Part shown: piece after piece, positions 34,521 through 40,528 of the stretch
How positions within the stretch are numbered: the first letter of the stretch is position 1
Layout of the letters: each line of letters starts with the position of its first letter
Assembly: GCA_963664225.1 (NCBI GenBank)
Contig: OY760937.1
Coordinates: 4,256,001-4,320,000, forward strand
Length of the DNA stretch: 64,000 nucleotides
Source of the DNA: Verrucomicrobiia bacterium
GTDB taxonomy: Bacteria; Verrucomicrobiota; Verrucomicrobiia; Limisphaerales; UBA1319
Direction of reading: 5' to 3'
Notes under the pieces: model-generated
The model's database searches: none
What the model was told of the DNA's origin: nothing
What the model saw: the letters and a program-made list of their open reading frames with translations, nothing else
Position numbers and translations under genes: made by a program

Positions 34521-36050
34521 TCAGGTTATCTTGACGACCACGGCGGTGACATCGTCGAGTTGTTGGGTGTTATTTGAAAATACACGCACGGCCTGATAAA
34601 GGGCATCGACAATTTCGAAAGCGGGGCGGTTTAAGTGTGGACGGACGGCATTGAGGATGCGGTCCAGACCGAAAAAATCGCCAGCGGGGGACATGGATTC
34701 GTCCACGCCATCTGTGAGCAAAAGCACAACGTCCCCGGAGGCCAGTTGAATCTGGGAGGATTCCGTATATTTGGCATCCGGCTGGATGCCCAGCGGGCCG
34801 CCGGTGCGCTTGAGGAGGCATTTGAGTTCTCCTGACGCGCTGAGGACATATCCCGGGGGATGCCCGGCGCTCGCGTAGCTCAGGCGACGGTTTTTGGGAT
34901 CGAATTTCGTCAGGATCATGGTTACAAAGCGCTCGTAACTGACATCCTCGGCGAGCATTTGGTTGGCACGGTCCATGATGATGCCCAACTCGCTGCGATT
35001 GCGGGCGAGCAGGCGCAAATAAGCCCGGGTTTCGGCCATCAACATCGCGGGACCGATTCCGTGACCGGTGACATCCGCCACGACGACGCCCATGGCGCCA
35101 TCGGCCAGGGTGAGAAAGTCGAAGTAATCGCCGCCGGTGGCTTCCGCGGGATAGGAGGCGCCTGCGAGATCGAGGCCGGGAGTTTCCGGGGCGGACTTGG
35201 GGAAGAGGCGTTGTTGAATTTCCCGTGCGATTCGGAATTGTTCCTTGTTGTCGCGCAATTCGTTCTCGGCCTTTTTGCGTTCCGTGATGTCGCGGATGAA
35301 GGCGACGAGCCAGCGTTTGTGGTGCAATTCCATTTCGCTGAAGGCGATTTCAATGGCGATGCGGTGGCCGTCCTTATGCAAACCCACGGTTTCGCGCGGG
35401 GCATGTTTCACCTTGGGATCTCCGTGGAGCATGTAATCCTGCATCCCTGATATGTGTGCTCCGCGCAATTCATCCGGTTGAAGGATGGACAGGTTCTGGC
35501 CAACCAATTCAGTGGGAGAATAGCCAAAGACTGTTTCGACGGCGGGATTGGCGAAATGGATCAGACTTTCGGCATCCACCAGAATGACGGCGTCCGTGGA
35601 GGTCTCCCAAAGCAGGCGGTAACGCAGTTCGCTTTCGCGCAAGGCGGTCACGGCCTGGCGTCGCGCGGCGCGGCTTTCGGCCTCGCGGAGTTCGCGCGTA
35701 ACGGCAGGGACTAGGCGGGCGAGATTGCCCTTCATCAGGTAATCGTGGGCCCCGGCCTTCATGGCGGCCACTGCGATGTCCTCGCCGATTCCGCCGGAGA
35801 CAATGATGAAAGGCATGTCCAGGCCGCTTTGTCGGAGAACCTCCAGGGCTTCCTGCATGCTGAAGCGGGGCATGTTGAAATCCGACAGAACGAGATCCCA
35901 CTCTTGAGCACCCAGGGCTTCAAGCATTTCCTCACGCGTTTCGACCCTGCGGAATTGGGGATCAAATCCACCCTGGCGCAGCACATTGACCAGCATGGCC
36001 GCGTCAAACTCGGAATCCTCAACAATCAATGCGCGTAATGGAACTTTCAT
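34521..36050 (-). CDS. Response regulator with PAS and SpoIIE/PP2C phosphatase domains (RsbU-like)
   Basis: REC (LIVED, LSDFNMP), PAS (ELVGQN, HKDG), PP2C (GGDYFD, ADVTGHG, TDG, DDVT). Confidence 0.92.
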   Translation of the reverse strand: MKVPLRALIVEDSEFDAAMLVNVLRQGGFDPQFRRVETREEMLEALGAQEWDLVLSDFNMPRFSMQEALEVLRQSGLDMPFIIVSGGIGEDIAVAAMKAGAHDYLMKGNLARLVPAVTRELREAESRAARRQAVTALRESELRYRLLWETSTDAVILVDAESLIHFANPAVETVFGYSPTELVGQNLSILQPDELRGAHISGMQDYMLHGDPKVKHAPRETVGLHKDGHRIAIEIAFSEMELHHKRWLVAFIRDITERKKAENELRDNKEQFRIAREIQQRLFPKSAPETPGLDLAGASYPAEATGGDYFDFLTLADGAMGVVVADVTGHGIGPAMLMAETRAYLRLLARNRSELGIIMDRANQMLAEDVSYERFVTMILTKFDPKNRRLSYASAGHPPGYVLSASGELKCLLKRTGGPLGIQPDAKYTESSQIQLASGDVVLLLTDGVDESMSPAGDFFGLDRILNAVRPHLNRPAFEIVDALYQAVRVFSNNTQQLDDVTAVVVKIT

Positions 36051-36305
36051 AACCGGCCTTCGCCTCCTCTCCGTGTCTTGAAAAAGGCACGCGTCTGGCC
36101 GCCGAACAAAGAAATGCAGCGCGGCATCTCTGTAAGGCTGCCGCCGCGAAATTTCCACAAGTCGGTTTGCATGGGCTCAATTTTAGAGAGGCGCTGCGGA
36201 AAAACCATCACTTTTTACGACTGCAAATCCGGCGGTTGAATTGACTGGGGCTAAATCCAGCACTTCCGGCGTGACCACCAAAGGTAATGCTGGCATATTG
36301 GCTTG

Positions 36306-37064
36306 GTGACACCGAATGATGCCTACGAATTGCTGGAACGATATCGCACTGGGAAAGTGACCCGGGAGAAGGTGCTGCAAGCCTTCCAATCGGCACCGAT
36401 GGCGGAACTGGGATTTGCCCATGTGGATACGCACCGGGCGTTGCGCCAGGGTTTCCCCGAGGTCATTTATGGTGGCGGCAAGACCCCGGAACAAGTGGTG
36501 AAGATCGCCGCCAAAATTTTGGAGCGCGATTCGCGGCTGCTCGTTACGCGGGCCGGGCCTGAGCACGCGAAAAAGATGCGCCGGATTTTTAAGAAGGCGA
36601 AGTATCATGAAGCCGCGCGGTGCATCACAGTGGAAACAGCGCCGCATCCCAAACGCCCGGGCAAGATTGTCGTGTTATGCGCGGGCACCAGCGATTTGCC
36701 TGTGGCCGAGGAGGCCGCGATCACCGCGGACATCATGGGTAACACGATCGAGCGCCTTTATGACGTGGGCGTGGCGGGGCTGCACCGGCTGCTGGGGAAA
36801 CTGGAGATGGTTCAGAGCGCGAACGTGCTCGTGGTGGTGGCGGGCATGGAAGGGGCGCTGCCCAGCGTGGTGGCGGGATTGGTGTCGCGCCCGGTGATTG
36901 CCGTGCCGACCAGCATAGGTTATGGGGCGAGCTTTGGGGGTGTGGCGGCGCTGCTGGGCATGCTCAATAGTTGCGGCAGCGGGGTGACGGTGGTGAATAT
37001 CGACAATGGGTTTGGCGCGGGATACGCGGCCAGCCAGATCAATGCGCTGGCGGTTGGCGCTTGA
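36306..37064 (+). CDS. larB: Nickel-pincer cofactor biosynthesis carboxylase LarB
   Basis: [61 protein letters not shown]. Confidence 0.95.
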
Positions 37065-37097
37065 GAGGCTTTGCATCTATGTTTGGCGAACCTTTTA

Positions 37098-37261
37098 ACC
37101 CGAAATCCGAAATAAGAATGGTCAAGACGATGCAATGCTTTGAGACAGCCATGATTTGCAATCGGCGAAGGTGTATTAAATCAATACTCCACAGCCGGTT
37201 TCAAACCATGGATGGCCAAATGATTGCGTCAGATGGGCCGTTCCTATTTCGGATTTCGGGT
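37098..37261. mobile_element. MITE (non-autonomous IS derivative), 164 bp
   Basis: Left TIR ACCCGAAATCCGAAATAAGAATGGTC (37098-37123) matches the reverse complement of 37236-37261 at 23/26 positions; TTA at 37095-37097 and at 39237-39239 once the intron is removed; no transposase. Confidence 0.75.
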
Positions 37262-39236
37262 GTGCGCCAGTGAAATTGGTAGCCTCGTGGGTGAAAGTCC
37301 CGCCGGTCGAATTAGACGGTTCACGACCGAAATGCAGCGTCCGGGACGAGGCCGTGAGGCCGAACCACAAGCGGGACGCTGAAAGAACTGTCGGGTCGTA
37401 ACGAAAGTAAACCTCATCAAATGAGCTCCGAAACCGAAATAACCGGTAAGCCGAGCCGCTACCCGAACGGCGAAGGCAGAAACGCGGCGTCATCAAATCG
37501 TCAAATGGGCGCTGTTGATTCCGGCGGAGTCAGCGAGGGCGACACGACAGGAAGGGAAACCAAGGTAAGCTGGGAGATCTCTGGAGGCGGGGCGATAAAG
37601 CCTCAACCGCCGGTGCAAGGAGGAACACCCTCCGAGGCCGCACGGGCAGCCAGAGAAGTCGGAGTCTTCCATAGTAGCGAAGAAGCTGGGGCGACCAAAA
37701 CCCCGGCGGAGCCAAGGGAAGGCACTTGGATCGAAGCGAATCAAAACAGCGAGGGACAGGGAGATGGCCTTGAGGGAGTGGAAACACTTTTTCAACGGAT
37801 AACAACCCCGATAAAAGTTCAAAAGCTGCAGCGAGCGCTATATTGCAAAGCCAAGGCTGAGCCGAAGTATCGGTTTTACAGCCTCTACGGAGAACTGCTG
37901 CGGAAGGACGTGCTGGAAACGGCAATGGCCTCCGTGGCGCACAACAATGGCGCGGCTGGGATCGACGGGCAGACATGCGACGTCTATCTTGCCAGCGACG
38001 AAGCCTGGGACCAATGGCGGAACCAACTGCTGGAGGAGTTACGCACGAAGAAGTATCGGCCAAGCCCGGTGAAGCGTGTGTATATACCAAAAGGAGACGG
38101 GAAGCTGCGACCCCTGGGCATCCCGACAGTGAAAGACCGGGTGGTGCAGACAGCGGTGGTGATTGTATTGCTGCCGATTCTGGAAGCCGATAGTCATCCG
38201 AACAGTTACGCCTATCATCCCAAACGCAATGCCCACCAAGCAATGGAGGCGATCAAGAAGGCTACGCTGACAGGACGCGTCGAAGTTATAGACGCGGACT
38301 TAAGCGGGTATTTTGACAGCATTCCCCACAGGCGTTTGTTGCGCATAGTGGCCAAGCGGGTCAGCGATGGAACAATTCTCAAGCTGATCGCAGGATGGCT
38401 GCGCGCGCCCGTGAATGAACCGCAAAGCGACACAGGGAAAGGCGGGACAAAGGGGGGGCAAGGTCAGAATCGACGGGGGACTCCGCAAGGCGGGGTTGTA
38501 TCGCCGATTTTAGCCAATGCATACCTCAACCAGTTGGATTGGGAAGTCAACGAACGCTGCGAACTCAAACCCGTGATGGTGAGATACGCGGATGATTTCG
38601 TGATACTCGGACAGCCGGGGCAGGGACGGGAACTGATGGAACGACTGGAACGATGGCTGAAGCAACGCGAGTTAGTGCTCAACGAGAAGAAGACCCGCTT
38701 GGTGGACCTCCGCCAGGATGGCATCAAATTCTTGGGATTCGCGCTAACAATGCGACAGGGGAAGGGGAAATGGAAATATCCGCATGTGGAACCCCATCCC
38801 AAGAGCCAGAAGAAGTTTCGAGACGGGATTCGGGAGAAACTCAACCGAAGCACGCTATGGCGTGATATCGGAGAGGTGATTCCCGAGCTCAACAAGAAAC
38901 TCAAAGGTTGGAAGGGTTACTTTCACTACGGGAACAGCACCAAGGTGATGGGCCAGATGAACGAATACGTCAGCAGCAAGTTACAACGATGGTTGTGGCG
39001 CAAACACGGATGTAGTCGGGCGCAATGGTCCACATACCCCAAGGAGGATCTCTATGAGCGTTATGGTTTATACCAAATGCCGGAATATGCGGCATGGAAA
39101 CGATGACGTCGAAGCGATGCAACGTATGATCCCCGGAGAGCCGGATGCGGGAAAACCGCCTGTCCGGTTCGATGAGGGGCGAAATGCGACGGTCATTGGC
39201 CACGGCCATTCAATCCGTCCATTTCGCCTACTCTAC
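37262..39236 (+). mobile_element. Full-length group II intron (IIB-like, AGC triad, RT ORF without endonuclease domain)
   Basis: 5' GTGCG at 37262; domain V GAGCCGGATGCGGGAAAACCGCCTGTCCGGTTC near 39138; domain VI ending CTACTCTAC at 39236; EBS1 loop ACCCGA (37461-37466) pairs with exon TCGGGT. Confidence 0.93.
37778..39106 (+). CDS. ltrA: Group II intron reverse transcriptase/maturase
   Basis: LQRALY.KAK, AAGIDG, RPLGIPTVKDRVVQ, DADLSGYFDSI, GTPQGG..SP.LAN.YL, RYADD, FLGF, X domain (GWKGYF); start codon uncertain. Confidence 0.93.
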   Translation: METLFQRITTPIKVQKLQRALYCKAKAEPKYRFYSLYGELLRKDVLETAMASVAHNNGAAGIDGQTCDVYLASDEAWDQWRNQLLEELRTKKYRPSPVKRVYIPKGDGKLRPLGIPTVKDRVVQTAVVIVLLPILEADSHPNSYAYHPKRNAHQAMEAIKKATLTGRVEVIDADLSGYFDSIPHRRLLRIVAKRVSDGTILKLIAGWLRAPVNEPQSDTGKGGTKGGQGQNRRGTPQGGVVSPILANAYLNQLDWEVNERCELKPVMVRYADDFVILGQPGQGRELMERLERWLKQRELVLNEKKTRLVDLRQDGIKFLGFALTMRQGKGKWKYPHVEPHPKSQKKFRDGIREKLNRSTLWRDIGEVIPELNKKLKGWKGYFHYGNSTKVMGQMNEYVSSKLQRWLWRKHGCSRAQWSTYPKEDLYERYGLYQMPEYAAWKR

Positions 39237-39277
39237 TTAAGAGGGCATGTTTAGTTTTTAAATCATCCGGGCATACC

Positions 39278-40528
39278 ATGGCGAACATACTTTATTTGGA
39301 CCTTATCAGCGGCATCAGCGGAGACATGTTTCTGGGGGCGATGCTTGATCTGGGGGTGGATTTTGAACGGCTCAAGCGCGAACTGAGCTGGTTGTGCGCG
39401 GACGGTTGCACGCTGCGTTTTGAGCGCAAGGGGAAAATGGGCATTAACGGCGTCAAGTTCGATGTCGATCTGGCGCCGGTTCACGAGCACCACCATGAAG
39501 ACGAATCCGCCCATAAACACGGCGGGGCCGCTCATTCGCATGGCCATGAGCATGGACGGAATTTTGCGGAGATTCGCAAGCTCATCGAGACCAGTCCTTA
39601 TTCGGTCTGGGTGAAGGAGCGGGCGATTTCGATGTTTTCCCGGGTGGCGGTGGCCGAGGGGAAGATTCACGGGCATCCTCCCGAGGAAGTCCATTTTCAC
39701 GAGGTCGGCGCCATGGATTCCATCGTCGATATTGTCGGCGCATGCCTGGCCCTGGAATGGCTGGGGCGGCCGCGGGTGCTGGCCTCTGCGGTGGTGGATG
39801 GGACGGGATGGATCGATTGCGCGCATGGGCGTTTTCCCATTCCCGCGCCGGCCACGCTCGAAATATTGGCGGCACGGCAGGTGGCGGTAAGCCAATGCGA
39901 CGAGCCGCATGAACTGGTGACGCCCACGGGAGCGGCCTTGTTATCGGAGTTTGCCCAGGAGTTTGGCCCGATGGTTGGGCTCAAGCCGGTGAGAATCGGA
40001 TATGGCATCGGGGGACGGGATCATGTGACGCGACCCAATGTGTTGCGCGCGGTGCTTTGTGAAACGGATGAATCCAAGTCCGATTGGGAGACCGATAACG
40101 TGGTTCTGCTGGAAAGCAATATCGACGATTTGAATCCTGAAATTCTTGGAAATTTCATGGAAGTGGCCTTGGGGGCGGGCGCGTTGGATGTGTTTTACAC
40201 ACCCATCCAAATGAAGAAGAACCGGCCCGGAACGATGCTGTCACTCTTGTGCCCGATCGGGCAGGCGGATGCTTTTGCGGCGTTGATCCTCAGGGAAACC
40301 AGCGCGTTTGGCGTACGAAAAATCGTCTGCGAGCGTCGGAAATTGAGACGGGAGTTTTCCATCGTGGAGACTTCCTACGGACCGGTATCCATCAAGGTGG
40401 GGCGGCTCGATGGCGAGGTCTTGCACCGCACGCCCGAGTATGAATCCTGCAGGGAATTGGCGGCCAAGAAGAACGTGCCGGTGCGAAAGGTCTATGAAGC
40501 GGCCATCAAGGCGCTGCCCAAGGTTTGA
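39278..40528 (+). CDS. larC: Nickel insertion protein LarC
   Basis: SGISGDMFLGA, His-rich linker, VHFHEVGAMDSIVDI, PAPAT, TPTGAA, MKKNRPG, PEYE. Confidence 0.95.
   Translation: MANILYLDLISGISGDMFLGAMLDLGVDFERLKRELSWLCADGCTLRFERKGKMGINGVKFDVDLAPVHEHHHEDESAHKHGGAAHSHGHEHGRNFAEIRKLIETSPYSVWVKERAISMFSRVAVAEGKIHGHPPEEVHFHEVGAMDSIVDIVGACLALEWLGRPRVLASAVVDGTGWIDCAHGRFPIPAPATLEILAARQVAVSQCDEPHELVTPTGAALLSEFAQEFGPMVGLKPVRIGYGIGGRDHVTRPNVLRAVLCETDESKSDWETDNVVLLESNIDDLNPEILGNFMEVALGAGALDVFYTPIQMKKNRPGTMLSLLCPIGQADAFAALILRETSAFGVRKIVCERRKLRREFSIVETSYGPVSIKVGRLDGEVLHRTPEYESCRELAAKKNVPVRKVYEAAIKALPKV

Follow-up and report, generated by a model that had tools for sequence, protein, structure and literature searches.

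A group II intron occupies positions 37262 to 39236 of the plus strand of a 64,000-nucleotide (nt) stretch of DNA from a Verrucomicrobiia bacterium (assembly GCA_963664225.1, contig OY760937.1, positions 4,256,001 to 4,320,000). This whole stretch is referred to here as the window. It belongs to one 5.78-Mb contig, which was searched genome-wide for further copies; positions of copies and targets outside the window are given as genome positions on that contig. The intron directly follows a miniature inverted-repeat transposable element (MITE), and the relationship between the intron and the ends of such elements is the subject of this analysis. The features of the locus are listed below, where EBS and IBS denote the exon-binding sites of the intron and the intron-binding sites of the exons, respectively.

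37094-37098, plus strand: left copy of the probable 5-bp target-site duplication (TSD), TTTAA; the alternative is a 3-bp TTA at 37095-37097
37098-37261, plus strand: the MITE, 164 bp, a non-autonomous element of the IS1380 type and a near full-length imperfect palindrome
37098-37114, plus strand: left terminal inverted repeat (TIR), ACCCGAAATCCGAAATA, an unoccupied minus-strand homing site (genome position 4293097)
37245-37261, plus strand: right TIR, which is also the 5' exon recognition region, with IBS2 at 37245-37252 (extending to 37254) and IBS1 at 37255/37256-37261
37294-37539, plus strand: core of ribozyme domain I (Rfam group-II-D1D4-6, RF02005; 54.9 bits, E = 1e-12, cut-off 49)
37431-37442, plus strand: EBS2 loop, a 12-nt internal loop, AAACCGAAATAA, unpaired in the Rfam consensus and directly 5' of the EBS1 hairpin
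37455-37471, plus strand: EBS1 hairpin, with a GCCG/CGGC stem (37455-58 / 37468-71), a 9-nt loop, CUACCCGAA, and EBS1 ACCCGA(A) at 37461-37467
37778-39106, plus strand: intron-encoded protein (IEP), 442 amino acids (aa) from a GTG behind GAGGGA, in a frame open from 37421
39136-39236, plus strand: ribozyme domains V/VI (Rfam RF00029; 49.3 bits, gathering score 40)
39237-39240, plus strand: start of the 3' exon, TTAA, which with T37261 makes the right TSD copy, TTTAA; T39237 is the candidate IBS3
36303-37064, plus strand: upstream host gene, AIR carboxylase / LarB-like, outside the element
39278-40528, plus strand: downstream host gene, nickel insertion protein / LarC-like, outside the element

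The intron is complete. It is 1975 nt long, begins with GTGCG and ends in ...CTCTAC (CTAC), and these termini match the bacterial group II criteria of a GUGYG 5' end and an AY 3' end. An earlier note on this DNA, made from the letters alone, had placed the borders at these same positions; they hold, as do all of its statements about the sequence, and the Rfam matches to domains I and V/VI fall inside them. As expected of the protein encoded in domain IV of a mobile bacterial group II intron, the IEP contains a reverse transcriptase (RT) domain (PF00078, RVT_1; 1e-34) and a group II maturase (X) domain (PF08388; 7e-14), scores 357 bits against TIGR04416 (cut-off 300), and carries the YADD motif in its RT domains. 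The protein stops 25 aa past the maturase domain, and no HNH or other C-terminal domain, whether a DNA-binding or an endonuclease part, was found in it. The window intron is an endonuclease-less RT/maturase group II intron. A regular-expression search of the 442-aa protein gave no match to the class D C-terminal motif LX3AX3PXLF[V/A]HW, in the form given in the available portion of PMC4615759. Matches to the IEP on plasmids have 38-42% identity.

The MITE matches its own reverse complement at about 74% over 164 nt. The earlier note had described a perfect 17-bp repeat common to both TIRs, and this 17-mer, TATTTCGGATTTCGGGT, does match twice in the window, at 37245-37261 on the plus strand and inverted at 37098-37114, against a mean of 0.01 matches in the shuffled window. 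Nineteen full-length copies of the MITE, at 92.7-100% identity, are present in the genome together with fragments of interrupted copies. Its tips resemble those of a 1534-bp insertion sequence (IS) that is present in five identical copies and whose 474-aa open reading frame (ORF) is an IS1380-family transposase (NF033539, 227 bits with a cut-off of 180; PF13701, 2e-27).

Elements of the IS1380 family have ends beginning with CC and make a target duplication of 4-5 bp. In this genome, a 5-bp TTWAA duplication next to ends of the form CCCG...CGGG is compatible with 21 of 24 elements, a tally that includes one degenerate, mis-extended copy. When the introns are deleted in silico, matching direct repeats are restored in 21 of the 24 if the duplication is read as 5 bp and in 22 if it is read as 3 bp, as would be expected if insertion of the intron spares the TIR, as the earlier note had proposed. 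The two readings agree wherever the duplication has the form T-N-N-N-A. Three copies favor the 5-bp duplication with CCCG...CGGG ends, namely those flanked by TTTAT (174176/174340), TTGAG (828000/831676), and TTGAA (4325637/4325801); in these, the base beside CCCG is not A and equals the fifth base of the opposite flank. One further copy fits a 4-bp TTAA duplication. Judged from these junctions, T37261 most likely opens a 5-bp TSD instead of closing the TIR, and the intron would therefore lie one base outside an intact element, the IS proper of the window MITE probably running from 37099 to 37260. The position of insertion given in the earlier note, directly before the flanking TTA, thus stands, while its assignment of T37261 to the end of the TIR probably does not. 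Described in this way, the homing site consists of the IS tip (-17 to -2) plus the duplication (-1 and +1 to +3). Such a site would be half tip and half transposase-made TTWAA duplication, and it would therefore exist only after integration.

The pairing between intron and exon is extensive. EBS1 ACCCGA (37461-37466) is the exact complement of TCGGGT (37256-37261), as the earlier note had stated together with the hairpin stem, and A37467 with T37255 makes a seventh pair. EBS2, CCGAAATA (37434-37441), is the exact complement of TATTTCGG (37245-37252), which gives 8 contiguous Watson-Crick pairs from -17 to -10; in the same register, A37432 and A37433 add pairs with T37254 and T37253, and pairing extends to 10 of 11 positions if these A-T pairs at -8 and -7 are counted. 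Combined, the two helices span -17 to -1 with a single A.A mismatch at -9. As for the folding that the note had called for, both motifs lie in the loops expected from the Rfam consensus structure. The predicted ligated-exon junction is ...TTTCGGGT joined to TTAAGAGG.

Comparison with related introns bears on these pairings. RT relatives at 76-78% identity were found in named records of metagenome-assembled genomes (MAGs), and a sample of 200 other genomes of the same order yielded further intron relatives in 19 of them (20 of 201 if the genome of the window is included); the first 300 nt of these introns match at 70-88% DNA identity. In an alignment of these introns, variation is concentrated in the exon and in the EBS1 and EBS2 loops, and domain I is otherwise highly conserved. 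For 12 introns, which come from several genomes, the helix between the EBS1 loop and exon positions -7 to -1 was scored for covariation; 98.8% of its cells are paired, and five of the seven pairs have changes in both partners. Paired cells make up 74.6% of the complete three-helix structure, compared with 33-37% once the partner is displaced by 1-3 columns, and none of 500 shuffles of this structure reached the observed score. Furthermore, of 12 distinct intron/exon pairs, 11 have an EBS1 helix of 7-8 bp; when introns and exons are mismatched, the helix averages 3.2 bp and reaches 6 bp in just 4% of combinations. Given this covariation and the difference between own and mismatched helices, the pairing of EBS1 with the IS tip can be taken as established at the level of sequence comparison. 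For EBS2, one core pair (columns 9/197) is paired in 12 of 12 relatives.

Within the genome, the intron is present in 19 copies, each 1975 nt long and 100% identical. All 19 have a 5' exon ending in ...TCGGA[T/G]TTCGGGT and a 3' exon starting with TAA or TTAA, its first base being T throughout, so that the tabulation of flanks proposed in the earlier note places every copy behind the same transposon-tip sequence. Thirteen copies follow ends of the 164-bp MITE (8 at one end and 5 at the other) and four follow ends of the 1534-bp IS (3 and 1); thus, 17 of the 19 lie at one of these element ends, and each kind of element is used at both of its ends. The two remaining copies (2065436 and 3974268) follow 13 and 16 nt of tip-like sequence with no MITE or IS behind it, and one of these lies 21 nt past the stop codon of a host gene. 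These solo sites could be ectopic sites picked by pairing or relics of deleted elements. The note had also asked whether the TIR occurs elsewhere. It is multicopy: the exact tip 13-mer is found 51 times in the genome, always at IS/MITE ends or at the two solo intron sites. The natural targets accept 1-3 mismatches at -17 to -14, with a short core at -13 to -10 common to all. The intron-bearing MITE copies are 92.7-100% identical to the window MITE, although the introns that they bear are identical; the insertions would therefore be independent of one another and much younger than the MITEs, and the spread of the intron recent or still going on.

In sequencing run X2, which may represent the source strain, the intron contig has a depth of 157 and the unique flanks have depths of 7-9, values that fit about 19 copies. 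A contig from metagenome run X6 carries a variant of the window intron with 7 differences in 1911 nt (compared with window positions 37232-39168), and a second contig from X6 bridges the same tip/intron junction. Thus, the intron-at-tip arrangement also exists outside the isolate's own runs.

Several other features of the elements were observed. A variant of the MITE end with G at -18 (tcGtatttcgg...) is occupied in none of five cases (ends 93981, 174340, 623755, 2984653, and 3887614), of which two are on the favored strand described below; in every occupied target, position -18 is T or C. A protein contact with the distal 5' exon might be involved, although the numbers are too small to say. 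A composite of a MITE with the 1534-bp IS1380 element in its central TTAAA is present at two loci, oppositely oriented on the chromosome (828002-831676 and 2984654-2988329), which suggests that the MITE ends mobilized the whole composite. An unrelated 1858-bp IS (264642-266499, 6 copies, TIR GCACTTTACCCC..., 566-aa ORF) sits centrally in another MITE copy, whose outer flanks carry no matching duplication.

The distribution of the introns between the DNA strands is highly asymmetric. The genome contains 48 intact targets, defined as the exact 13-mer followed by T[A/T]A. With the replication terminus placed at 1.25 Mb and the origin at a cluster of DnaA boxes, 19 of the 25 targets on the strand of leading-strand polarity are occupied, compared with 0 of 23 on the other strand (p = 1.6e-8). 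If the origin is instead placed just beyond dnaA, 18 of the 25 and 1 of the 23 are occupied (p = 1e-6). Both placements are given because the origin markers, which were drawn from GC skew, gene-strand bias, dnaA, and DnaA boxes, do not coincide closely: the DnaA-box cluster, which ties with another at 0.78 Mb, lies at 2.8925 Mb, dnaA itself at 2.99 Mb, and the minimum of gene-strand bias near 3.1 Mb (within a span of 2.7-3.2 Mb). The introns are in plus orientation from 2.986 Mb via the contig ends to 0.95 Mb and in minus orientation from 1.66 to 2.19 Mb. Orientation therefore switches just twice round the circle, and the chance that the 6 minus copies among 19 would be contiguous is 19/27132 = 7e-4. 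The terminus markers (GC-skew maximum at 1.23 Mb, gene-strand maximum at about 1.25 Mb) lie between the first switch points. No element has introns at both ends, though both ends present the same target, and in the two oppositely oriented MITE::IS composites, at 0.83 and 2.98 Mb, the intron is at whichever IS end offers the plus-strand target. This pattern fits fork-dependent retrohoming into the lagging-strand template. As to the replication layout itself, the plus strand has a positive raw GC skew over nearly its whole length (mean +0.036), with values close to zero between 1.3 and 3.6 Mb. The replichores look very unequal, with the terminus at about 1.25 Mb and dnaA at 2.99 Mb, and the minimum of the skew is at odds with both dnaA and the gene-strand bias.

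These findings have led to the following model, to which we assign a probability of about 0.9. The window intron would be an active, endonuclease-less intron that is programmed by its own RNA to reverse-splice at the outer junction of IS1380 elements and their 164-bp MITE derivative; its splicing and its mobility are themselves predictions from the sequence. As shown above, EBS1 ACCCGAA pairs with the last 7 nt before the insertion, the IS tip ...TTCGGG plus one T, and the EBS2 loop can pair with the next 10 nt; the T(T)AA with which the 3' exon begins in every copy would be the IS's own AT-rich target duplication. Each insertion of an IS or MITE would make the homing site anew, once per strand, and the intron would stay outside the intact IS. 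Since the IEP has no endonuclease, the intron would exploit single-stranded DNA together with a nascent strand present at replication forks, in the manner of RmInt1. An element would then be occupied only at the end that has its target on the strand of leading-strand polarity (the lagging-strand template), and elements with introns at both ends would consequently be missing. The earlier note had already read the locus as a parasite of a parasite that uses a transposon end as a renewable homing site. That reading is supported; the observations that it had singled out as decisive (the location of other intron copies, the presence of the TIR elsewhere, and the folding of the EBS motifs) all came out in its favor.

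Some observations weigh against this model or parts of it. The candidate EBS2 of the earlier note is an exact complement in the expected loop, but a conserved helix is not supported in the relatives: 46% of cells pair in the window register among the 12 relatives, and the helices that introns form with their own exons do not exceed the cross control. No EBS3 could be assigned, since the 3' exon starts with T in every case seen, which leaves IBS3 invariant. One element (3186564/3186728) fits a 3-bp TSD better than a 5-bp one. The detrended GC-skew minimum lies at 3.67 Mb, and an origin there would put copies 2,986,270 and 3,648,845 on the other strand, leaving 17 of 19 on the favored one. In addition, six perfect targets on the favored strand are empty (174340, 266581, 623755, 2988329, 3232798, and 3982651). 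Finally, no contig that skips the intron was found in runs X2, X4, X5, and X6 (4 of the 24 listed; contigs only); no more than 0.07 of the sampled words are present in the RNA runs, and the run contigs consequently bear neither on splicing nor on empty alleles.

Three other explanations were considered. In the first, occupancy of one strand would reflect transcription or selection, with survival limited to copies that can be spliced from host transcripts. The window intron is indeed co-oriented with the flanking larB-like and larC-like genes. Genome-wide, however, just 8 of the 19 introns share the direction of the upstream gene and 9 that of the downstream gene, as judged from crude ORF-based gene calls that are wrong at least for the downstream gene of the window. 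Furthermore, transcription would not account for two orientation switches on the chromosome, with the low chance of contiguity given above, or for the coincidence of one switch with the terminus indicated by skew and gene bias. We consider this explanation unlikely.

In the second, the intron would recognize a shape, namely the base of a long hairpin into which the palindromic MITE folds as DNA or RNA, and base-pairing would be secondary. Class C (IIC) introns provide the precedent, being intergenic, endonuclease-less, and located at the 3' foot of an inverted repeat such as a terminator hairpin or an attC site, features that the window intron shares. The near full-length palindrome of the MITE is in keeping with such a mechanism. 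So are the relatives, since 9 of 22 distinct junctions in other genomes have an inverted copy of the last 16 nt of the exon (with up to 3 mismatches) 39-194 nt upstream, where the chance expectation is estimated at about 0.006 per locus; in one relative family, the inverted repeat runs past the insertion point. (Among the relatives with such a TIR partner, the 3' exon was recovered for loci L005 and L082 only.) Yet on the favored strand, 4 of 5 IS ends are occupied despite a distance of 1.5 kb to the partner repeat, compared with 13 of 18 MITE ends, and the two solo sites have no partner repeat. The equal use of IS ends and the existence of solo sites argue that the shape is not required. In addition, a 7-nt EBS1 with full covariation and an EBS2 loop are unlike class C, in which IBS1 is short, EBS2 is lacking, and a 5' stem-loop is needed. 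Shape recognition as the primary determinant is therefore very improbable.

The third, in which the intron is carried as a passenger by transposition or recombination of the MITE or IS with no homing of its own, would explain why the intron is always joined to an element end and why the TSD brackets element plus intron, but it is already largely refuted and hardly credible, given that the outer end of the intron carries no TIR, that the intron is found at either end of the MITE, at either end of a different IS, and at two sites without an element, that identical introns are present in MITEs differing by up to 7%, that the two MITE::IS composites carry it on different IS ends, and that EBS1 covaries with the exon in relatives.

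Homing of an endonuclease-less intron to the inverted repeats of an IS is, as a principle, already published. According to the available portions of a paper from the Toro laboratory (Martinez-Rodriguez et al., RNA Biol 2014, PMC4615759) and of a review (PMC5894124), all copies of RmInt2 in Sinorhizobium meliloti GR4 are in the terminal inverted repeats of ISRm17, left and right repeats are both used, and a short EBS2 pairing is tolerated. The authors of the former point out, in the part at hand, that use of two repeats doubles the number of sites and guarantees one on the lagging-strand template (PMC4615759). RmInt2 thus resembles the window intron in being an endonuclease-less RT/maturase intron found in the TIRs of an IS, with both ends used. 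The two differ in geometry. A check of pRmeGR4c showed that four RmInt2 copies share just 16 nt of 5' exon, the IS tip, and that they are followed on the 3' side by one of two kinds of IS interior. The insertion point of RmInt2 is therefore 16 nt into the repeat, with the intron pointing inward and dividing the end of the IS. The window intron faces outward, having a whole IS end as its 5' exon and host DNA (the TSD) as its 3' exon, and the IS remains intact. Moreover, the host element is ISRm17 in one case and an IS1380 element and its MITE in the other, domain I matches RF01999 in RmInt2 and RF02005 in the window intron, the IEPs are 31% identical, and the class D motif is missing in the window intron.

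RmInt1, a class D intron of S. meliloti that targets ISRm2011-2, is described in the accessible parts of PMC5894124 and PMC6698660 as endonuclease-less, guided by EBS/IBS pairing, dependent on single-stranded DNA at forks, and biased toward the lagging-strand template. It shares with the window intron the lack of an endonuclease, the mode of target recognition, and a multicopy IS as its home. Insertion of RmInt1 blocks the spread of ISRm2011-2, according to the same part of the review (PMC5894124), whereas the window intron leaves the IS intact and uses the IS/host junction; the IEPs are 35% identical. For class C introns, a related paper, seen in part, is PMC7923331; the window intron is distinguished from this class by its 7-nt EBS1, its EBS2 loop, and its use, in 4 of 5 cases, of IS ends without a nearby partner. 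Its IEP is 37% identical to that of the pSymB intron, which is taken to be the class C intron of the review. The closest intron in S. meliloti GR4 is a disrupted one on pRmeGR4b, with 45% identity over residues 96-312 of the window IEP; this is a comparison with a fragment comprising the RT core only, which is taken to be the class E copy of the review (S.me.I4, PMC5894124, as far as the available part goes). The comparison of the window intron with these classes covered such identity figures and the class D motif search. Two further papers that were considered as related, PMC9769881 and PMC4853749, are unrelated as far as their available parts show. In the portions of the literature at hand, nothing was found that describes a group II intron at MITE or IS1380 tips or homing to a tip junction. 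What appears to be new here, then, is the IS1380/MITE host, the outward and non-disruptive geometry, the all-or-none occupancy of strands, and the sign of a clade that tracks such tips.

The evidence for such a clade comes from the relatives. Those of the same order sit behind variant tips (...TTCAGGT, ...TTAAGGT, ...TTCCGGT), with EBS1 changed to match, and about 14 of 22 relative exons end in IS1380-like tips (...TTCGGGT, TTCAGGT, TTAAGGT, TTCCGGT) as judged by eye. One relative, at locus L107, sits at the end of a 165-bp MITE that is homologous to the window MITE and has a different tip (...CTACTGCCGTTTTAAGGT). A tblastn search of the loci of 33 relatives with the IS1380 transposase gave no match in flanks of up to about 2 kb. 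The idea that a whole clade of endonuclease-less introns has specialized on the outer junction of IS1380-type elements and MITEs, and coevolves with them, has in our view an even chance of being right.

Two observations concern other introns and loci. A second family of group II introns is present in the genome in 4 copies that are 99-100% identical (RF02005, 70.4 bits; 1676532-1678500 and 5161411-5163379 on the plus strand, about 2329490-2331456 and about 5604130-5606098 on the minus strand; locus L110), and these are not at IS1380 tips. The sequence that they share starts ...TGGAAAGCGCC and hence has no GUGYG 5' end; an EBS1-like loop, UCAGAGA, would pair with ...TCTCTG directly before GAAAGCG. 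Upstream of one related intron, positions 2-421 of locus L004 encode the C-terminus of a SpoIIE-type phosphatase that by eye resembles the window ORF at 34521-36158 on the minus strand, a response regulator/phosphatase. The L004 contig, labeled as a Hyphomicrobiaceae MAG, may come from a relative of this organism instead of the labeled taxon.

For the genome itself, nineteen identical 2-kb repeats at the ends of ISs and MITEs provide substrates for rearrangement and put correct assembly at risk. The genome is also its own controlled experiment on strand choice by endonuclease-less introns, with 48 identical targets, half on each strand. The natural series of EBS1 retargeting among the relatives may help in building endonuclease-less targetrons. 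More generally, an intron that reads the junction between IS and host can make use of a transposon and yet leave it functional, whereas the rhizobial introns are thought to curb their ISs. If the proposed specialization of the clade is true, the IS would be left functional, and each insertion event would provide one usable site, the one on the lagging-strand template. Such introns would then occupy a self-renewing, non-destructive niche, as commensals of the transposon rather than the brake that has been proposed for RmInt1 and RmInt2.

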